64,000 bases of DNA from a virus (Duplodnaviria; Caudoviricetes), in the IMG/VR virus record IMGVR_UViG_3300042691_038938. One strand, 5' to 3'. Numbering within the stretch: position 1 is the first letter of the stretch; every line of letters starts with the position of its first letter. The translations under genes were made by a program, and so were the position numbers. This document shows positions 7,169 through 44,231 of the stretch, piece after piece. A model generated the notes under the pieces. It was not told where the DNA came from and ran no database searches. It was given only the letters and a program-made list of their open reading frames with translations.

Positions 7169-8294
7169 TATCTTGACCAATTACAGTATACCTGAATTTG
7201 TTAGAGACCTCCTAAAAAAGAGGTTTCCTGGAGACAGGTTAAAACAGACTGTACACGACGCTGGAGATAAGCTTAACTTTGCATGCCCTTACTGTGGGGA
7301 TTCCAAGACTGATTCCAAGAAGAAGAGAGGTAACCTCTATCCTGAGAGAGGATTCTATAAGTGTTACAACGACGGGTGTTCCATCAAGGTGGATACTGCA
7401 AAGTTCGTCTCAAAATACGCTCAGACGTATGGATTAGAGATCCCAAGCGTCAAGGCTGTTGAACCGCAATGGGTACACAACACTTCCAAGAAGAAAAAAG
7501 GCTCCCTTATCGAGCTCCTAATAAATCGAAACATCGGATCATCCCTATTAGAAATAGATTATCTGGTCTCTAGGTTTTCTTTAACTCCCTGCAAAGAGGC
7601 CGACTTTGGATCTAGAATAGGGCAGTTTGTGGAGAGTCGAGGACTTAAAGGAATACCCACATTTGATGACTGTTGCTACTTCGATTCAAGCCAGAACAAG
7701 GTGTATCTCTTTAACGTCGACCTAAAATCAAAGAAGATCTTGGGATTTGCTATTCGTCGATTAGACCAAGTGAGCGGTCCAAAGTACTTGATCAAGAACT
7801 ATGCTGAACTAAAGAAAAACGGGCTAGTTCCTTCGCTAAACGATGAGGTGATAGGGGACATAGATTCTCTGAATAATTACTTTAACGTTTTTAACGTTGA
7901 CTTCACCAAGCCAGTCTTTGTGACTGAGGGTCAGATTGATGCAATGTTTCTTCAAAACGCGATAGCCACGACTGGAGTCTCTAAGAGTAAGCTGCTTCTT
8001 GAGAACCTTCTCTCTAAGAACTCTGCCCTCATCTTCTTCGATAGTGACCTTGCTGGAAAAAAGCAGTCGATTGAGCTCATTAAGAAAGGATATCGAGTCT
8101 TCCTATGGAGCAAGGTGATGAATGACTTAAAAATAAAGTACAAAGCCGATCGATTTGAAGTGTCTCTAATAAAAGACGTTAACGACTTGTTCCAATTCAT
8201 TCATTCAAGAGAAGAAGGGTTCGGGTTTGACGAATTTAACTCATTTGTTCTAGATTACTTTTCAGAATCGCCTCTAGATCTCATCTTGGTGTAG
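7161..8294 (+). CDS. DNA primase (T4 gp61-like)
   Basis: Zn finger CPYCGDS...KCYNDGC; TOPRIM VTEGQIDAMFL and FFDSD. Confidence 0.85.
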   Translation: MFDILTNYSIPEFVRDLLKKRFPGDRLKQTVHDAGDKLNFACPYCGDSKTDSKKKRGNLYPERGFYKCYNDGCSIKVDTAKFVSKYAQTYGLEIPSVKAVEPQWVHNTSKKKKGSLIELLINRNIGSSLLEIDYLVSRFSLTPCKEADFGSRIGQFVESRGLKGIPTFDDCCYFDSSQNKVYLFNVDLKSKKILGFAIRRLDQVSGPKYLIKNYAELKKNGLVPSLNDEVIGDIDSLNNYFNVFNVDFTKPVFVTEGQIDAMFLQNAIATTGVSKSKLLLENLLSKNSALIFFDSDLAGKKQSIELIKKGYRVFLWSKVMNDLKIKYKADRFEVSLIKDVNDLFQFIHSREEGFGFDEFNSFVLDYFSESPLDLILV

Positions 8295-14934: not shown

Positions 14935-15408
14935 TTATCTTTTCCCATTCAAGTCAACCATGTACTTACCCTTAGTGATTGCATTCTTACCTATGATACA
15001 TGGAAATTTCATATTGCCTCTATCCGTAAGAGACACCTGAACCCTAATCTCGTCATTCCCTATCTTAAGCATAGTCCTAATTCGGTAGCGGTCCTCAGAC
15101 TTGCCTGAAGAATTCTTGACCTTTACTTTATCAAATTTTGAGAATTCTAGACGATTAGATGGAGATTTTATCCAAAATGAAAGAACCCCATTTTTAACTT
15201 TAATGTCGTTTGCGTCGATTGAAGTTCCATCTGCTCCAGTATCAATCTTAGCTTTAATGCTAGACACTTTAAGCTCAGGAAAAGATACTTTTTCAGTGGA
15301 CCCTAATGATCTTCGAGGATTTGAACCATAGTAATCCCAAGCTCCTGGGTTCTGATGGATCTCTGATGAAGTTATGAACTCCTTAAAACTCTCTACTAGC
15401 CTTTTCAT
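14935..15408 (-). CDS. Retropepsin-like aspartic protease (RimK-associated family) with CTS-like N-terminus
   Basis: AKIDTGADGTS, LTDRGNMKFPCIIG; MKRLVESFKEFI. Confidence 0.8.
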   Translation of the reverse strand: MKRLVESFKEFITSSEIHQNPGAWDYYGSNPRRSLGSTEKVSFPELKVSSIKAKIDTGADGTSIDANDIKVKNGVLSFWIKSPSNRLEFSKFDKVKVKNSSGKSEDRYRIRTMLKIGNDEIRVQVSLTDRGNMKFPCIIGKNAITKGKYMVDLNGKR

Positions 15409-18467: not shown

Positions 18468-19379
18468 TTATTTTCCTTTAGAAGCCTTGATCAAGTTCTT
18501 AGCTAGAGTATTTCTCTTATGGGTCTTAGCATCCTTCTTGTCAAGCTGAAGTCCAGGTTTCTTTTTATCTTTGTCCTTCTTCTTAAGTTTTGCCTCGCTC
18601 TTATCGATGTCAGATATATTCATCTTCTCACCTTTTTTCATTCCCATTTCCTTGCGAAGAGCTCCCTTCTTCATGTCTCCAACAACTCCTCCGATCCATT
18701 TGTCTTTCTTAGCTTCATTTACGAATTGTGAGAAGCTCATGATTCCCCTAGACTCCTGTACTCCAGGTTGAGTTGCAGTATCCAATTCGCCTTCAACTGG
18801 GGCAGCAGGTACAGTTCCTGAAGTAACTTGACTATCACTAGGCGCGACTCCAGTAGTGCCGACTGGCTGAGCATCAAGGGATTGATCTAGGTTAAATCGT
18901 ACTGCTACTGGAATAGACGTGTCTCCAGTAACGAATTCAGACTGGTATGTTCCTCCGACCATTCCATCCTTCATGTCTTTAAACTGTTCATCACTAATCA
19001 CAAAAGAGATCGCATCAGGATCGTCTTGCGAACCAGTGGTCTGTTTTCCAGCTATACTTATCTTCATTGATACAGTAACGACATCTAATGAAGTTTGCTT
19101 ATTCATGAACTTAGCATCAGGCTTGAGTAGAGTACCGTCTTTTTCTAACTGTTCAACTTCCGCCTTTGTGAAGAGAGAGTCAAGTATATGAGTCTTCGCA
19201 AGCTCTTCAAAGTTTAAGACCGCAGGTTCATCAGTAGATGAAACGTTCGCTTTTATTTGAGTCGAATCGCTAGGCACGCTCGCTTCTGGAGCGGCCGGTG
19301 TTCCCATTTCTTCTGGGCTTAGAGGCTCTCCCGCTTGTTCAGCTTCGAATATCTTTGCAAAATTAAAGTACTTATGCAT
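18468..19379 (-). CDS. Acidic domain plus Lys-rich C-terminal domain separated by a CTS-like motif
   Basis: MHKYFNFAKIFEAE; GIMSFSQFVNE before the basic tail. Confidence 0.75.
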   Translation of the reverse strand: MHKYFNFAKIFEAEQAGEPLSPEEMGTPAAPEASVPSDSTQIKANVSSTDEPAVLNFEELAKTHILDSLFTKAEVEQLEKDGTLLKPDAKFMNKQTSLDVVTVSMKISIAGKQTTGSQDDPDAISFVISDEQFKDMKDGMVGGTYQSEFVTGDTSIPVAVRFNLDQSLDAQPVGTTGVAPSDSQVTSGTVPAAPVEGELDTATQPGVQESRGIMSFSQFVNEAKKDKWIGGVVGDMKKGALRKEMGMKKGEKMNISDIDKSEAKLKKKDKDKKKPGLQLDKKDAKTHKRNTLAKNLIKASKGK

Positions 19380-19405: not shown

Positions 19406-20146
19406 TTAATCAGAATAGATTTTAGAATAGAGATCAGACATTAAGTCTATCATCTCTTCTATCGTACCTTCCCTTCTTAGTTCCTTGAAGACTAAATTCT
19501 CGACTGAGAACTCTCCTCCTGAAGCAAGACCTGACTTCCGGTCAGCTAATACCTTCCTTTTGAGTCTCTCAACATACTCATACAGGATCTTAGCTTCCAT
19601 TCCGGAGATAGACTTTGCTCTCTTCTTCATCATCTCTACTTCTGCCTGAATCACTCTCTTCTTTTCAGAAACGTCCTTTTGATCGATCTGTGGAGGATTG
19701 TATTGTGGAACTATTATCCACTTTCCTTTAAGAAGAGAATAGAGACCTGAAGCGGTGTGTTGTTCGTCTTTGTGTTGTACATAGCATTCCACATCATGTC
19801 CTCTAAGGACTACTGGATGCCGTTGGTTCCACATAAATCTCTGACCATCCAATGCCTTTCTTACTAAATCGATGTTTGAGTCGACTTGTGAAAAATCAAC
19901 TATTAAGTGAACATCTAGGTCAGAGTCACGATTCCAGTTATAGTTAGCCAACGAGCCAGTCAGCTGTACGTCAATGATCGGAACATCGAGCTTTAAGGAT
20001 TCCCAAAAGTCCTTGGCTATCTGTAAGAGAGTCTTTCTGATCTCAGGCTTCATTTGATTTTCCTCCCATATCTTTGGACAGAGATCCTTATGATACTCAA
20101 CCTTTTCGTTGATCCACTCGCTAAATTTTCTAGCTCGATTTTTCAA
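19406..20146 (-). CDS. Pol-beta superfamily nucleotidyltransferase with CTS-like N-terminus
   Basis: LTGSLANYNWNRDSDLDVH (GS...DxD), third carboxylate in HDVECY; (M)KNRARKFSEWINE; TTG start. Confidence 0.8.
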   Translation of the reverse strand: MKNRARKFSEWINEKVEYHKDLCPKIWEENQMKPEIRKTLLQIAKDFWESLKLDVPIIDVQLTGSLANYNWNRDSDLDVHLIVDFSQVDSNIDLVRKALDGQRFMWNQRHPVVLRGHDVECYVQHKDEQHTASGLYSLLKGKWIIVPQYNPPQIDQKDVSEKKRVIQAEVEMMKKRAKSISGMEAKILYEYVERLKRKVLADRKSGLASGGEFSVENLVFKELRREGTIEEMIDLMSDLYSKIYSD

Positions 20147-26034: not shown

Positions 26035-27714
26035 GTGATCAAGGATTTTAAGACATTTGTCAATGAGGCACTAACAGTAAGGTCGAGTCTGACCGGAGTC
26101 AAAGACACTCACTTTGAAGAGAGAGCAAAGCTTCGATTAAAAGGATTAAAGATAGTAAATTTTCTAGACGATTCAGGAAAGAATGTTGATGTAGATCCTA
26201 AGGTAAAATCAGCGAGCACAAGATTCTTTCAAGAAGTTTTCTTTCACCTAGCTGATCCAGAAAAGAGTAAGATATTTGATGAGGTTGACGTTCCTTTAGG
26301 AATGATTGGACTCATTAGAATGGGAAAACCAGTAGTAGTTCTTCCTAACGGCAAAAAGGTCAAGCCTGTGTTTGAAGTCTATGAAAGGACTGACCAGGGC
26401 AAGAAGATAATGAGGACTGGCCTCTACTTCTGGATATTCACAATAGGTTCGACTGTTCGTACCATAAAGCTATATACGTTAGACGGCAGCAACCAGTCTG
26501 AGAGAAACACGATCATCAATAAGTCAATAGATCACTTACGGTTTAATAAAGAGGCTGAACTTGCTAGGATATCTAGAGTGTTAAATGTGAGAATGGAAAA
26601 TCCGGAAGACTTGAAACAAAAGCACAAAGTTGTTTTAAAGCCGGCTGGCATAGATGAAGTAACATTTGACCTTAGTCTGCCTGCATCAACTGAACAACAG
26701 CTAACCGACTTTATCGCTGGAAGCACAGTCACTCGACAGGAACAAGTCTATATCGCTCCTGAGAGAGGCACTACTGATTTTACTTTAGAGACTGTTCCCA
26801 AACAAATGAACATCACCCCAAACAAGGTGTGGATTCTAGAGAGAAACGAGAAGCACAATACTTGGGGAGCAATACCCATTGAAGATTCTCAACTAGTGAA
26901 GAGAGGAGGGGACAATGAGATAGCTATGAAGATCGGAAAGAAATGGGTACACTGGTTAGACGAACCTAGATTCAATCCTCCTGTTCCTACTAACGAAAGA
27001 TTTATCAGAAAGGGAGACACTATCACACTAGCTAAGCAGTTAGGAAGCGGCCAGTGGCTCGCTAACACAGGAACTATTCGAGAGATCTCAATAGATCCAA
27101 AGAGCGCTTATCCATATGCCAAGACTGCGGGATGGGATAAGACTGAAATAATTCCTGCGGATCTTGCAGAGAGAATGTTTAAGGATTATCGATTAGCCAA
27201 TGAGAGCAGGTTTGTGATGAGCTTTAACGAATGGATAGATCACACCACTCCATTAAGCACCCGTTTGAATGAGGAAATAGTGATTGATAAAGAGATACCG
27301 GAAATGGATCAGTTCTTAGAGATAGTGTGTAATCCAGACGGCTCGCTTAAGTATCCCGAGCTTTTCACAAGATTGCAAGGAGGTAATGACAACCCTAAGC
27401 TTAGAGAACAGATCAAGAAAATGTATCTAGACACAAGTACTAGAAAAAACAAGAAGGCCAAATATTCAAAAGAGGCAAGGACGGTGATAGAAATGGTTTG
27501 GGAACTGACTAAAATAAACACTGATTCGGAAATAGACATTGACAAAATTATTCCTGAAACTATACTTGATCCAACTGAAAAGCAAGCTGATGGAACATAT
27601 CCGACTGACTACAAGTTCTTCGTTTTTACTGATCTAAATTCAAAAGCGATCGATTACTTGACTGGAGAAAGAAGCGGCATTGCCACAGGTTTTATGGGAC
27701 TCATGGCTAGATAA
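26035..27714 (+). CDS. Large hypothetical protein with N-terminal and internal CTS-like motifs
   Basis: (M)IKDFKTFVNE; ANESRFVMSFNEW; GTG start. Confidence 0.75.
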   Translation: MIKDFKTFVNEALTVRSSLTGVKDTHFEERAKLRLKGLKIVNFLDDSGKNVDVDPKVKSASTRFFQEVFFHLADPEKSKIFDEVDVPLGMIGLIRMGKPVVVLPNGKKVKPVFEVYERTDQGKKIMRTGLYFWIFTIGSTVRTIKLYTLDGSNQSERNTIINKSIDHLRFNKEAELARISRVLNVRMENPEDLKQKHKVVLKPAGIDEVTFDLSLPASTEQQLTDFIAGSTVTRQEQVYIAPERGTTDFTLETVPKQMNITPNKVWILERNEKHNTWGAIPIEDSQLVKRGGDNEIAMKIGKKWVHWLDEPRFNPPVPTNERFIRKGDTITLAKQLGSGQWLANTGTIREISIDPKSAYPYAKTAGWDKTEIIPADLAERMFKDYRLANESRFVMSFNEWIDHTTPLSTRLNEEIVIDKEIPEMDQFLEIVCNPDGSLKYPELFTRLQGGNDNPKLREQIKKMYLDTSTRKNKKAKYSKEARTVIEMVWELTKINTDSEIDIDKIIPETILDPTEKQADGTYPTDYKFFVFTDLNSKAIDYLTGERSGIATGFMGLMAR

Positions 27715-27716
27715 GA

Positions 27717-28037
27717 CTAGTCTCTAAACTTTCCTGGAAAGATCTGTCTCCATTCATGACCCTTCGGTATGAATTTCTTCTTGACTCCAAAGATCTTGTC
27801 CTCTCCTGGATCACAAGCATTCTCACCATTCCACTTGAATCCGTTGCGACATGCCCAATTCTTCATGAATATGGTAAAGGGTTGACCTGTCACAAAGGGA
27901 AACCTTACTCCAGACTCGTTATCAATTTCCTCAATCTTTCCGTGAGTCATCTTAATTGTAATAGTTCTTCCCTGTCTCGATGTAAGGACTATGACTTCTT
28001 CTCTCATCCAGCTTTCGTATAGCACAACGTGTTTCAC
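27717..28037 (-). CDS. Hypothetical protein with CTS-like N-terminus
   Basis: MKHVVLYESWMRE. Confidence 0.7.
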   Translation of the reverse strand: MKHVVLYESWMREEVIVLTSRQGRTITIKMTHGKIEEIDNESGVRFPFVTGQPFTIFMKNWACRNGFKWNGENACDPGEDKIFGVKKKFIPKGHEWRQIFPGKFRD

Positions 28038-28039
28038 TA

Positions 28040-28741
28040 TTAAATCTTTATTTTATATGCAGTCGTTTTTGCCACTCCCTTTAGGTTTCTTAGAGGTTCG
28101 CAAGAGTGTAACTGTAATTCTGAAAGAAGTCTACCGCTTCTTCTACGTTTACCCTCATAACATCTCTGCTGATAGTCAATGATCTCTAATTTACGACTCT
28201 TCTTAGAAACTAGATCCTCTATCCTTTTCTCCTCCTCTTTAGGTAGAGCTTCAGTAAAGCTAAAGGTCACGTTTCCAGGTTCAGAAACAGTCGACTCCAT
28301 TCGAGAAGCAGTGTTTACCGTGTTACCGAAGAAGTCCCATAGTTTTTTACCTTGGATGTCTGTCTGCTTTTTATATAGAGGTCCCCAGCAGATCCCAAGT
28401 CGAATCGTCATGTTCTTATCCTTAATCTTGATAGGGTTATTCTTAAGGTCCTCCTGTATCTCCATGCCTGCCTCTACCGCTCTTAGTAAGGAGTCCTTGC
28501 CCTCGAAGCTGACCATGTAACTATCACCGATAGTCTTTACGATCATGCCCTTGAACTTTGTGACCACCTTTGTCATTCGCTTATTGTGCTCTTCAAGAGC
28601 ATTGAACATGCCAGACTGATGTAGCTTCCAAAGCTTAGAGCTTGACTTAACGTCAGTGAACAGGATCGCCTGCTCCTTCTCTTCAAGTTTCTTTAGAGAG
28701 TCAATGCTCTCCCAGATAGGATAAGATACTAAGTATTTCAT
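28040..28741 (-). CDS. Class III adenylate cyclase with CTS-like N-terminus
   Basis: ILFTDVKSS, VKTIGDSYM, IRLGICWGP, WDFFGNTVNTASRME. Confidence 0.9.
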   Translation of the reverse strand: MKYLVSYPIWESIDSLKKLEEKEQAILFTDVKSSSKLWKLHQSGMFNALEEHNKRMTKVVTKFKGMIVKTIGDSYMVSFEGKDSLLRAVEAGMEIQEDLKNNPIKIKDKNMTIRLGICWGPLYKKQTDIQGKKLWDFFGNTVNTASRMESTVSEPGNVTFSFTEALPKEEEKRIEDLVSKKSRKLEIIDYQQRCYEGKRRRSGRLLSELQLHSCEPLRNLKGVAKTTAYKIKI

Positions 28742-28744
28742 GTC

Positions 28745-29074
28745 TTATTTGGGCCCAAATGTTTTTATCTTCTTGAGACCGTGTCTCTCTAAAAACTCAG
28801 AAGGAACTGCCTCTTCGATGATTGTGTGTAACTGTGATGCTAGCATTTCTTGATAAGTGGTCTCGTTTACATTAACAAAGCAGAACCAGTGAGTCGCAGG
28901 AAGCTCTCCTGTCTCAGACAAGGGAATAGTTAAATGGTCTACTGAAAACTCAGGGTCTTTCTTTTTCTTCAACTCAATGATGCGGTCTGCTGATTCGCGT
29001 TTAGGCAAGACACCAGCTGATCTCTTTCTAGCTTCAACTACATTCTCATTTTCACATAGTATGCATAGTCTCAT
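28745..29074 (-). CDS. Hypothetical protein
   Basis: Start moved to MRLCILC downstream of the previous stop. Confidence 0.6.
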   Translation of the reverse strand: MRLCILCENENVVEARKRSAGVLPKRESADRIIELKKKKDPEFSVDHLTIPLSETGELPATHWFCFVNVNETTYQEMLASQLHTIIEEAVPSEFLERHGLKKIKTFGPK

Positions 29075-29090
29075 ATACTTAATATTTTTT

Positions 29091-30014
29091 TTAGTAGCTA
29101 AATAGCGATAGTATCGATGTACCTTGACTCTCAAGGTTCAGGTTCTTTATGTATGAGACATAATACGGCGCAAGAGCTCCGCCCGTCTCAGTATCCACCT
29201 TAAAGAGTCCAAGGTTAGGATCTCCATCTAGTTCAGAGTCTGCAAACACTATCGCAGAGTAAACTGTGCCTCTGTGCTCGACTGTGCTGAATACTCCAAG
29301 TATCAACTCCACTCTAGTCTCACTAGGAGAAGGAACGAGTATGTTAGAATAGATAAAGTCGCCTGCATCTATATCAAAAGGCCCTATGATTATATCTGGC
29401 CCAGCATACGCTATCGCCCATGGAGTTCCATCATACAGAAAGAGGTTTCTAAGTAGGTAACCTGTCACGCCGTCATCGACTTCAGATACTTCAGTCACAT
29501 CGACCGTTTCGGCTAATTCGTTCAGTGTCACTCTAATGATGCTAGACACTCCAGTCTTCTTGAAACCGTTATCTAGATAGATAAAACTCCCATTACCTTC
29601 ATAATACAGAGAGCTTGCTCCCTTTGTCGCATAATCGTTGATGTTATTATCAAAGAAGGTAAACTCTCTGGTCTCCTTGTCGATTCGTATGAAATATACT
29701 TCTCCACCAAAATCAACCGCTGCGTATAAACGATCATCGTCTGTGTTTAGGGTGATTACGGTCAGATCAGGAAAATTCTCGAAGTTGAATGGCCAATTGG
29801 CTTCAGTTCGGTCTACTGTGTATATTAGACCATCGAATGAGACTCCAAATAGTCCCTCCAATGGATCATATCCGCCGCCGCTACCTGCTGCGCCAACTCC
29901 GCCTTGTGACTGCATCTTGATTCTTATTGCTTGCTCAAATAGAGCATCCTGTTCTAGCTTTGCGCGAAGAGCTCTTTGTTCGGGCGTCTCGTTTCCCCAA
30001 TTGATGAATGACAT
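29091..30014 (-). CDS. MSFINWG-anchor protein with beta-rich C-terminal domain
   Basis: N-terminus shared with 39765-41417; Gly linker. Confidence 0.75.
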   Translation of the reverse strand: MSFINWGNETPEQRALRAKLEQDALFEQAIRIKMQSQGGVGAAGSGGGYDPLEGLFGVSFDGLIYTVDRTEANWPFNFENFPDLTVITLNTDDDRLYAAVDFGGEVYFIRIDKETREFTFFDNNINDYATKGASSLYYEGNGSFIYLDNGFKKTGVSSIIRVTLNELAETVDVTEVSEVDDGVTGYLLRNLFLYDGTPWAIAYAGPDIIIGPFDIDAGDFIYSNILVPSPSETRVELILGVFSTVEHRGTVYSAIVFADSELDGDPNLGLFKVDTETGGALAPYYVSYIKNLNLESQGTSILSLFSY

Positions 30015-30034: not shown

Positions 30035-30661
30035 TTATTTATCCTGAAAGTGTCGCTGTATTCGTTCGCTTAGCCTAATTCTAGGATCCGACTTACTTCG
30101 TCCCAACTCCTCGTACTCTAACATGAATCCAAAACTAAGCAGCACTCTTCTACTCTTAAAAGGATTTGGTGTCCAGTGCTTGTATAGACTGGCTTCAAAA
30201 CAATAGAGATCAGTCTCTTCAACGTTTACTATCTCCTTCTCTATTGCGAACTCGTAGGGTCCTGAGAGCACACTCACGTTACACTTATAGTTTATGAGTC
30301 CGTCAAAGCCGGCATCATAGTGCGCTCCAATAGTTCCTCCCTCGTCCATGTCAACTATCTGCAAGAAGGAATTCTTGTTTGGAATCCCTACTTCTTTGCA
30401 GACACTCTCAGCGATGTCGCGAAAAACATTAGGTATCTCTGTCTGGACGACTGCACCCCCAGCTTGGTATTGGGAGATCTTGCCCGAGATCTCATTCTGA
30501 CTCAGGTCAAACATGCAAGAAAAGCCATTTAGCTTTCCTATGAGCTCTTTAAGATGAGGATTAGTTAAGTCTCCATCAGACCTTAAAGAATTAACGAAGT
30601 TTAGGATCTGATTCCTTTGTCTCTGAGCTAGGAATCCTTTGTGTAATAGGTGATTCGACAT
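30035..30661 (-). CDS. 2OG-Fe(II) oxygenase
   Basis: HYD, YKHW, RRVLLSFG; TATAAATA at 30685-30692. Confidence 0.8.
   Translation of the reverse strand: MSNHLLHKGFLAQRQRNQILNFVNSLRSDGDLTNPHLKELIGKLNGFSCMFDLSQNEISGKISQYQAGGAVVQTEIPNVFRDIAESVCKEVGIPNKNSFLQIVDMDEGGTIGAHYDAGFDGLINYKCNVSVLSGPYEFAIEKEIVNVEETDLYCFEASLYKHWTPNPFKSRRVLLSFGFMLEYEELGRSKSDPRIRLSERIQRHFQDK
30036..30043 (-). promoter_or_regulatory. Late-type box embedded in the end of the upstream gene
   Basis: GAT AAA TAA = D-K-stop of 30035-30661. Confidence 0.6.
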
Positions 30662-39764: not shown

Positions 39765-41417
39765 TTAAACTGTTCCTACTTGTAAAGATCCTTGAGCTGA
39801 GCTAAATGGATCGTTTGTGCTATAAGCGAATCCCTGCGTTCCTGATGCGGAGTTACCATTTCCGCTGTTGTCATTCAATAGAGCGCTTTCTGTTGTTCCT
39901 TGAAACAATAGAAGTTTAACAGTCGGTAAAGTTGGGACGGTGAATGGTGCAGCAGGTGACGTGAATCCAGCTGTTGAATACTGCGCGGTGTCTGACCATC
40001 TAAAGTTACTTATGAATCCGTCGAGCGAAGAATTAGGCTCGTTACCGTATCCTATTGCTAAAGGCAAGCCTTGACTCGGTATTGGGTCGGGGTACGGATT
40101 TGATGCAACATTTATACCATCGATAAAGAGATCAATATTACCACTTGTTCTCATTGCGCATATATGATACCATTGTCCTAGTGTAGGTGTAAATGACCCA
40201 ACCGACCTCTGATCACCGTTTGCCCAGAAAATGATTTGATTAGTTTGAAAAGATATAGCATTGGCAGCAGTCGGAAAGGCACCAAAACTATACGGACGAG
40301 GGGAGGTGCCGAAGACGTCTAGTTGATTAAAATTAACAAACATCTCGATCGTAAAATCACCCGTGATATCGAAGTCTATGCTTGCTGGAATACTAAGGTC
40401 CGACACCAGAATATTAACGTCTACCGTCCACCCATTTCCTTCTAGAACTTCTTTGGCCGCAAGACCAATTTCACTCGGCGCAGCATTAGTAACTCCAGAT
40501 AAATCAACATATCCATTCGATACCCCGTTAGTACTTAAAGCAACTAAGATGTTATCTACAGCTTCTTCCGTTAGAGCCCCATCATCCACATCCACAGATT
40601 CACCATCACCAAGAGGCTGGGTATTTGATATAATTACATTTGTGATATCATCGTTATTACTTAGATCAAACCCTCGTAAAGAAGGCAACATTGATAAGTC
40701 AATACTAGTAATATTGCAATCATCAAAATCTATATACTGAAGGTCATTTAAACCAGTCAAATCTGGAGTTCCAGCAGAAAAATCACTGTCATCAAGATAA
40801 AGAAATTCTAATGAAGTACAACCTGAAACATTAACACTTGTTAATGATGGCGCCTCTGTATCAAGATCATCACAATCACTAATATCAATATATGTAAGAT
40901 TAGTCATTCCTGAAAAATCTACGCTTACTAATGAATTGTAGTCTGCTCTAAATTCTTGTAAATTGGCAAGGGTTTGTAAACCAGTTATTGATACTAAAGA
41001 TGAATAATTATCATCCCAACCTGGAAAATCCAACTGTAATACTTTAAGAGGATCATCAAATGTAACTTTAACTGTGTACTCTCCACCTTCATCATATGTA
41101 TGTTCTTCTGAATAGAATCCTCCAGAGCCTGAACCTTCATATGTATTACCGTCGCCCCAATCAATAGTAAATTCGATTGGTTCATTTGTAGAAGTAAATT
41201 CAATTCTAAAGTCAAGTTCTTGTGTTGTATTTACTACAAATTGTAAGCCGGTTGGCGGCACACTCCCTCCGCCGGCGGCCCCGCCAAACATGGTATTTGT
41301 TCCACGGTTTCTTGCCTGACTTAGCCTAGCTGCCTGCTCTAACAGGGCATCTTGCTCAAATTTTGCACGAAGAGCTCTCTGCTCCGGCGATTCACCTCCC
41401 CAATTGATGAATGACAT
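39765..41417 (-). CDS. MSFINWG-anchor protein with PKD-like, LRR and LamG domains
   Basis: IDWGDG (PKD); LxxLxL repeats; DFTIEMFV...WYHICAMR...LFIDG (LamG); GATAAATA at 41438-41445. Confidence 0.8.
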   Translation of the reverse strand: MSFINWGGESPEQRALRAKFEQDALLEQAARLSQARNRGTNTMFGGAAGGGSVPPTGLQFVVNTTQELDFRIEFTSTNEPIEFTIDWGDGNTYEGSGSGGFYSEEHTYDEGGEYTVKVTFDDPLKVLQLDFPGWDDNYSSLVSITGLQTLANLQEFRADYNSLVSVDFSGMTNLTYIDISDCDDLDTEAPSLTSVNVSGCTSLEFLYLDDSDFSAGTPDLTGLNDLQYIDFDDCNITSIDLSMLPSLRGFDLSNNDDITNVIISNTQPLGDGESVDVDDGALTEEAVDNILVALSTNGVSNGYVDLSGVTNAAPSEIGLAAKEVLEGNGWTVDVNILVSDLSIPASIDFDITGDFTIEMFVNFNQLDVFGTSPRPYSFGAFPTAANAISFQTNQIIFWANGDQRSVGSFTPTLGQWYHICAMRTSGNIDLFIDGINVASNPYPDPIPSQGLPLAIGYGNEPNSSLDGFISNFRWSDTAQYSTAGFTSPAAPFTVPTLPTVKLLLFQGTTESALLNDNSGNGNSASGTQGFAYSTNDPFSSAQGSLQVGTV

Positions 41418-41474
41418 GGTATCAAGTTTATTTGTTTTATTTATCTTTTCGGAGATCTTTAGTATAATAGCTAC

Positions 41475-41600
41475 ATGAAAAATCAAAATATTTACCGATT
41501 ATTGGTTCAATTTTCGCTTATTGTCGGAATAGTCCACCTTGCCTCCCAAGGAATGGAGGGTTGGGGCTGGCTTATTATTGCATTATTTTTAACCCTATAA
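41475..41600 (+). CDS. 41-aa membrane peptide (not in ORF track)
   Basis: MKNQNIYRLLVQFSLIVGIVHLASQGMEGWGWLIIALFLTL; TATAAT upstream. Confidence 0.55.
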   Translation: MKNQNIYRLLVQFSLIVGIVHLASQGMEGWGWLIIALFLTL

Positions 41601-43763: not shown

Positions 43764-44231
43764 TTAGTTATATTTATCAGGTCTCCATACTGGCACGTTT
43801 TCAACTCCATCGGGTATCCTATAACGTTTAGAAAAATGGGGCAGCTCATGCACGATGGACCTAGCGTCAATGCTGTGACCCTTCCTGGAGAGCACGTTCT
43901 CTATGCACTGTTCCGGATCATTGCTAAACCAGATCTCTCTTAAATCGACTCCTTCCAACTCAGCTAGACCCTGCCTAAGCTTCTCCCCTAGACCGATAAG
44001 AGTATAATCCTCAAAGTAGGGAGAGGCCAAGATCACGTGCTCTCCACTCTGCAAGGCTGATACTATCTCTTCAACGCTAGCAGAATCGTCGAAGACTCTC
44101 CACTCAAGATCGCTATCACTAATGATCTCACGTATGAGATGACTCTTACCCGAACCAGGTAGACCGTGTATCCAGACCATTGAAACCTTCGATCTGTTCT
44201 CAAATAATGAATATGATACTATGTGCTTCAT
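43764..44231 (-). CDS. P-loop kinase (PNK/AAA_33-like) with CTS-like N-terminus
   Basis: WIHGLPGSGKS; MKHIVSYSLFE; TATAAATA 44254-44261. Confidence 0.7.
   Translation of the reverse strand: MKHIVSYSLFENRSKVSMVWIHGLPGSGKSHLIREIISDSDLEWRVFDDSASVEEIVSALQSGEHVILASPYFEDYTLIGLGEKLRQGLAELEGVDLREIWFSNDPEQCIENVLSRKGHSIDARSIVHELPHFSKRYRIPDGVENVPVWRPDKYN

Follow-up and report, generated by a model that had tools for sequence, protein, structure and literature searches.

In class III nucleotide cyclases, a Lys/Asp pair is the signature of ATP as the substrate. The solved structures closest by sequence to the phage cyclase described here are those of the trypanosome GRESAG4 adenylate cyclases (1fx2) and of the minimal mycobacterial cyclase Ma1120 (Mycobacterium avium, 4wp3/5d15). 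They resemble it in the single domain, the six canonical residues, and the Lys/Asp ATP signature, as well as in the head-to-tail homodimer, which is predicted for the phage protein. Unlike these enzymes, the phage cyclase is encoded by a virus; its fold is preceded by a leader of 11 residues and contains an insertion, about 20 residues long, that carries the motif RSGRLL. To our knowledge, the enzymes that phages have been found to inject either modify proteins or DNA or carry out transcription (T4 Alt; the virion RNA polymerases of N4 and phiKZ). T4 Alt is packed in the head and injected (PMC5512222), and the T4 capsid-targeting sequence (CTS) suffices for packing foreign proteins into heads (PMC3012670, PMC9958956). 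Proteases of the T4 family cut after Glu in short motifs, including ITE and LTE sites in Alt (PMC5694885). Adenylate cyclases are also encoded by pelagiphages, where they belong to a fixed curli (T8SS) module with CsgF/G, FecR, and a histidine kinase (Wittmers et al. 2022, PMC9599517). The cyclase described here is likewise from aquatic phages and is a predicted adenylate cyclase; unlike those of the pelagiphage module, it is soluble, sensor-less, and leader-bearing, and it stands alone, with no conserved partner gene found across lineages. Both the fold and the targeting principle are familiar, and there are earlier reports of phage-borne cyclases of another form. What appears to be new is the combination: a cyclase family without a sensor that bears a CTS-like leader and occurs widely in jumbo phages, together with adjacency to head genes in some lineages and a mobile RSGRLL element. 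No phage adenylate cyclase family of this type is described in the literature that we searched, and class III cyclases go unmentioned in the reviews on jumbo phages and polyvalent proteins.

The cyclase gene lies within a 64,000-nt stretch of viral DNA (Caudoviricetes; IMG/VR record IMGVR_UViG_3300042691_038938), the whole of which was analysed and is referred to here as the window. It encodes a helicase, a split DNA polymerase, a primase, and a T4-type portal. The nearest relatives of the portal are from huge uncultured phages and Lak phages, and CheckV-type estimates for relatives give a genome of about 250 kb. DNA sequencing runs that contain at least 0.23 of the region's words include freshwater and lake metagenomes from separate studies, and no RNA sequencing runs matching the region are listed. 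The source is a freshwater T4-like jumbo phage. A megablast search of the region against 50,697 phage records returned no match, and tblastn of the cyclase against phage records returned two uncultured records only.

The gene (28040..28741, minus strand) comprises 233 codons and a stop, as defined by the open reading frame list, the PF00211 match, and homologues. Its ATG is at 28741, and the start is unambiguous because an in-frame TAA lies one codon upstream. The 233-aa product is a complete class III nucleotide cyclase, matching PF00211 (Guanylate_cyc) with 81.2 bits (E 9.3e-23; Pfam cut-off 21.9); among NCBIfam models it matches LipJ only, far below threshold. In an alignment of 28 cyclase sequences sharing 34% to 96% identity, the metal-binding aspartates D30 (LFTD) and D73 (IGDS), the base-specifying residues K69 (VKTIG) and D136 (WDFFG), the transition-state residues N143 and R147 (VNTASR), and the phosphate-binding R114 are all invariant. 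The catalytic residues align with their counterparts in the trypanosome adenylate cyclase GRESAG4.1. An earlier note on this DNA had named D30, D73, K69, D136, N143, and R147 and had described a complete class III cyclase with the ATP-typical Lys/Asp pair and no sensor domain. Each of these points is borne out by the Pfam match and the invariant residues, and by the presence of only 19 residues before strand beta1. The catalytic domain covers residues 20-233 (28043..28684, minus strand), as delimited by the invariant columns, Foldseek, and the dimer interface. Judged by its sequence, the protein is a minimal class III enzyme without a regulatory domain and most likely an adenylate cyclase, the Lys69/Asp136 pair predicting rather than proving ATP as the substrate.

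The AlphaFold model of the protein (pLDDT 86) consists of one cyclase domain that extends from residue 13 to the C-terminus (residue 233); only residues 1-12 and 200-210 are disordered (pLDDT <50). Foldseek matches the model to RhGC (5oyh), CyaC (1wc1), and CyaB (3r5g) over about 220 columns (E 5e-13, target TM-score up to 0.81). Two copies modelled with ATP and Mg scored 0.80, compared with 0.00 for the best control, a pass that may owe something to the solved cyclase dimers that exist. The mark of 0.80 was reached by 20 of 30 proteins solved as pairs and by 1 of 23 solved as single chains. Contact agreement among the dimer runs was at least 48%, and partner pLDDT was at least 81. The modelled interface (residues 33-39, 66-72, 127-143, and 221-224) includes K69, D136, N143, and K221 and is that of the solved class III dimers, which are head-to-tail with the active sites at the interface. 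The model is thereby consistent with the homodimer that the earlier note had inferred for this enzyme.

The disordered segment in front of the domain begins with the conserved leader MKYLVSYPIWE (residues 1-11; 28709..28741, minus strand), which resembles a CTS. Many N-termini in the window have this form, M-K-x-[IVL]-K-[ST]-[FY]-x-x-[FWY]-(0-2 residues)-E. We built a position matrix from 18 other N-termini of the window, leaving out the cyclase. The cyclase leader scores 13.3 bits with this matrix, a value reached by about 2 of 1384 equal-size internal blocks (p ~0.002). When applied to the 1553 ATG frames of the T4 genome, the same matrix ranks ipII 5th, ipIII 6th, and ipI 30th. In independent loci from other phages whose cyclase bears the leader, the tag is at the N-terminus of 24 of the 393 remaining genes, compared with 12 of 6669 internal blocks, a 36-fold enrichment (p 3e-22). 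At loci with a leaderless cyclase, none of the 114 neighbouring genes is tagged (p 0.004). Tagged genes in the window make up 19 of 68 in the late-box region and 0 of 45 in the early region, a count in which the matrix was trained on the genes themselves and their placement is still informative. The leader is found on none of the recognised replication or portal proteins of the window. Synonymous codons vary freely at its conserved residues (Lys, AAA 5 and AAG 5; Ile, ATA 4 and ATC 4; Asn, AAC 5 and AAT 4; Glu, GAA 5 and GAG 4), indicating that the leader is selected as a peptide; this variation rules out a signal at the DNA or RNA level. The matrix scores and the T4 rankings support the assignment of the leader to a T4 capsid-targeting-like family that is specific to N-termini, and at this family level the packaging tag proposed in the earlier note is upheld.

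The cargo proteins of T4 that are directed by a CTS and cut by gp21 (IPI, IPII, IPIII, and Alt) share with the cyclase the leader form [ST]-[FY]-x-x-[FW]-(0-2 residues)-E followed by a small residue, and relatives of this phage also have a gp21-type protease and a Gp23-type capsid protein. Beyond the leader there is no sequence similarity. The cargo here would be a second-messenger synthase, and tagged genes, of which there are about 19 in 44 kb, are far commoner than in T4. The putative cut site, between the last two residues of I9-W10-E11-S12, fits the pattern hydrophobic-any-Glu-small, and by the specificity of T4-family proteases the leader would be cleaved after Glu11. Three further leader-tagged proteins of the window resemble enzymes (19406-20146, 43764-44231, and 14935-15408, all minus strand); among them are a protein with weak matches to NTP_transf_2 and a poly(A)-polymerase palm near the cut-offs, a Walker-A P-loop protein, and a PF05618 Zn_protease match (69 bits). 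In T4 itself (NC_000866), a 76-aa frame at the uvsW end (114210, plus strand; start MLLEFKQFLYEA) has matrix rank 1 and a CTS-like N-terminus, and gp61.1 (gene at 19130, minus strand), which has the CTS-like N-terminus MKTFKEFIKED, also ranks high.

Homologues of the cyclase number 249 at E<1e-5; they are about 200-240 residues long and nearly all metagenomic, on contigs of up to 248 kb. A profile search yields 220 clusters (50% identity) at E<=1e-30, so that the family is large, extending over many jumbo phage lineages and giant viruses. Fused forms are represented by a single 550-aa protein. The leader is kept in most phage homologues and across the phage clades of the family, and leaderless homologues begin directly at the LFTD strand. 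One leaderless cyclase is on a 240-kb contig (L078) that we assign to a giant virus of eukaryotes because of its genes for ubiquitin, ankyrin repeats, Rpb1, a DCP2-type NUDIX protein, and a C1 peptidase; four further leaderless loci are giant-virus MAGs according to IMG/VR. Leader-bearing and leaderless members cluster strongly on the catalytic-domain tree, where about five or more changes in leader status are needed. This clustering and the leaderless giant-virus homologues indicate that the leader is an add-on of the phage lineages and not a part of the enzyme. In all, the leaderless members of the family on giant-virus-like contigs are those of L078, L022, L024, L026, L029, and L047, and the family is common to jumbo phages and viruses of eukaryotes.

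The motif RSGRLL (residues 201-206; 28124..28141, minus strand) was located by alignment and pLDDT in an insertion in the beta7-beta8 loop. The disordered insertion, about 20 residues long, adjoins K221. The motif has pLDDT <50 and is nearly invariant, R201, S202, and R204 being at least 90% conserved in the 28-sequence alignment. The motif is confined to the cyclase family and kept by 22 of the 24 leaderless homologues, indicating that it is part of the enzyme and not of packaging; a role as a second cargo signal is rejected on the same grounds. RSGRLL-S-E as a conserved protease site is unsupported as well, the Glu position being variable (D, K, N, A). The element may serve as a lid or a regulatory latch, or it may bind phosphate, and it may represent a feature, regulatory or catalytic, that is new to class III cyclases. 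In a well-supported sister clade (L017, L025, L028, L030, L033, L044, L048, and L051), RS(G)RLL is located between the leader and strand beta1, N-terminal of the domain. RSGRLL looks like a functional element that has moved between the ends of the cyclase domain.

In the window, the cyclase is the third gene behind the box GATAAATA (30036..30043, minus strand), a candidate late promoter identified in the box survey, and no terminator-like site intervenes. The first gene of the unit (29091..30014, minus strand; 307 aa) has the N-terminal module MSFINWGNETPEQ. This matches the module of the protein encoded at 39765-41486 (minus strand), which has PHROG hits to virion structural and baseplate wedge proteins. 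The second gene (28745..29074, minus strand) is an open reading frame of 109 aa with no family match. On the 3' side of the cyclase is a 106-aa open reading frame (27717..28037, minus strand) that is leader-tagged according to the matrix (MKHVVLYESWMRE), and the terminator scan places a weak terminator-like hairpin at the end of the unit (27674..27686, minus strand). The 106-aa gene keeps its slot in relatives with or without the cyclase and is therefore not a cyclase-specific partner. Proteins that differ greatly in length (200 to 936 aa) begin with the conserved module MSFINWGNE(T/S)PEQ, and one of them has virion structural/baseplate matches; besides the window, the module is present at L001 (10723-11325), L003 (9056-9967), and L007 (5538-8348). 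The module looks like a shared anchor to which exchangeable fibre-like proteins are joined, and the genes for these proteins recur beside the cyclase in close relatives.

Boxes of the form [G/T]ATAAATA, which is the T4 late promoter consensus or one base off, occur 30 times in the window (1-47400; for example, at 8294, 20173, 30043, and 43137). For 24 of them a gene start in the same orientation follows, in most cases at a distance of 13-36 nt; the operon that holds the portal gene and a virion structural gene is among those served in this way. In relatives, a box is found directly 5' of the cyclase, at -14 in L005 and L079 (after a terminator hairpin), -26 in L009, -19 in L011, and -12 in L017. 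Gene leaders are A-rich and have no Shine-Dalgarno sequences. The resemblance to the T4 late promoter consensus suggests that the cyclase is expressed late; T4 late promoters also drive non-virion genes. The true start of the structural gene (MSFINWG, ~41417) is 28 nt after the box at 41445. Three boxes are located beyond 47.4 kb, in the early region, and none of these has a downstream gene start.

Genes for head assembly were identified in close relatives of the window. Two records whose cyclases are 93% and 83% identical to that of the window (G001 and G002, respectively) have a Peptidase_S77 prohead protease above the Pfam cut-off, and more distant leader-bearing records have sub-threshold matches to prohead proteases or none. 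In three loci (L001, 4804-10702; L002; L003), the gene order is DnaJ-like, prohead protease (PHROG 207, 118 bits), Gp23-type major capsid protein (PF07068, 125 bits), DUF5856, and cyclase. The prohead protease of these loci is fused to a long repeat-rich C-terminal part, for a total of about 660 aa. The L001-L003 cyclases are 89% to 93% identical to that of the window and are in another genomic place, with flanks that have no nucleotide similarity. The cyclase gene moves as a cassette between close relatives.

The reading that we favour, with a confidence that amounts to an even chance, is that the sensor-less cyclase is packed as head cargo, injected, and makes cAMP at the start of infection. 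The enzyme would be made late from a T4-late-like [G/T]ATAAATA promoter, its 11-residue leader would bind the prohead core as does the T4 CTS, and a gp21-type prohead protease would trim the leader after Glu11. The enzyme of about 25 kDa would remain with the DNA in the head and enter the next host by ejection; there it would pair head-to-tail and convert host ATP to cAMP before phage genes are expressed. The cAMP would then act on host cNMP receptors. Packaging of the cyclase in the virion is probable, and we infer prohead-core binding, trimming, storage and ejection, cAMP synthesis in the host, the product, and the target. Four records of related phages, including one that is 98% complete, have no match to the cNMP-binding domain PF00027; for this reason any receptor is probably of the host or of an unrecognised kind. 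The same result weighs weakly against a CRP-like activator encoded by the phage and fed by the enzyme. The three roles that had been put forward for the cAMP pulse, in host transcription, in jamming of defence, and in feeding an activator of early promoters, are without support in this analysis.

Delivery in the head has its difficulties. About one in five late-region genes has the leader, several enzyme genes included, which would imply many cargo species, and the leader could mark something else. A dimer-dependent enzyme delivered in few copies may also be too dilute to pair. With somewhat less than even confidence, we suggest that in these phages a T4-like leader directs not one enzyme but a whole set to the capsid, the cyclase being the first virion-delivered second-messenger synthase. 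In this capsid-addressing reading, the set would comprise the cyclase, the nucleotidyltransferase-fold protein, the P-loop protein, and the PF05618 protease-like protein, a composition that we regard as tentative. It is similarly tentative that host cAMP would rise within seconds of DNA entry, before phage genes are read. A virion-borne cyclase, if true, would mean that phages seize the second-messenger signalling of the host from the first moment of infection.

It is rather unlikely, in our judgement, that the cyclase is instead a late cytoplasmic accessory enzyme acting in the producing cell (in metabolism, lysis timing, or phage exclusion), with a leader that silences or removes it via prohead capture or that has a role unrelated to capsids. 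The gene occupies a variable accessory slot and is mobile between close relatives, late promoters are no proof of a virion location, and phage adenylate cyclases are accessory genes in the pelagiphage curli modules (PMC9599517). However, the leader is kept across phage clades, is absent from giant-virus homologues, and matches the T4 CTS, which is sufficient for packing; in three relatives, moreover, the cyclase follows the protease and capsid genes. That the enzyme makes a cyclic nucleotide other than cAMP (cGMP, or cCMP/cUMP), which would trigger or exhaust a host defence, is a proposal that we regard as improbable. Some class III cyclases are promiscuous, and Pycsar cyclases make cCMP/cUMP. 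PADLOC PycC models match the phage enzyme, and the RSGRLL insertion by the beta7-beta8 loop could reshape the nucleotide pocket. The invariant Lys69/Asp136 ATP signature argues against this, as do the twofold higher score of the general Pfam model (81 bits, compared with 41 bits for the best PycC model) and the lack of a Pycsar-type effector (cNMP-binding with TM or TIR) adjacent to the cyclase or among its neighbours. The link to Pycsar drawn in the earlier note stands as generic homology, namely a class III-type fold and weak matches to PycC models, and goes no further: PycC is host-borne, whereas this cyclase is phage-borne, has the purine-type Lys/Asp pair, and scores higher with the general model. 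An inactive cyclase-fold protein serving as a structural or binding component is barely credible, since no catalytic residue varies even between deeply diverged homologues and the active-site dimer takes the canonical form in the model.

Pairing of the cyclase with an effector was also weighed against the favoured reading of delivery in the head. The product would activate a CapV-like patatin, a phospholipase, and the ensuing break in the membrane would serve lysis or phage exclusion. This idea, which we consider very improbable, comes from the relative with the 83% identical cyclase, in which the next gene, beginning 2 nt past the cyclase, encodes a patatin of 319 aa whose GGGxRG, GTSTG, and DGG motifs are intact. 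The patatin matches the PADLOC model 'Effector, Phospholipase', which we take to be part of PADLOC's CBASS effector set, over its full length with 227 bits. However, the window has the cyclase without the patatin, another phage (L080) has the patatin without the cyclase in the same slot, and other close relatives of the patatin have no cyclase nearby. Among 70 cyclase loci, a patatin is present only in that lineage and at one distant locus. Because each occurs without the other, the two genes are independent cassettes in a hot spot, and the patatin is judged unlikely to be a coupled effector. The phage enzyme further differs from CBASS in having the class III fold and not the CD-NTase fold, the CapV-like patatin of one relative being an independent cassette. 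The patatins of L079 (10704-11663; also in L004-L006) and L080 (4001-4960) have intact catalytic motifs and no leader. Three states of the slot are represented, with the cyclase only in the window, both genes in L079, and the patatin only in L080, and the patatin family is widespread in apparently related large-phage contigs.
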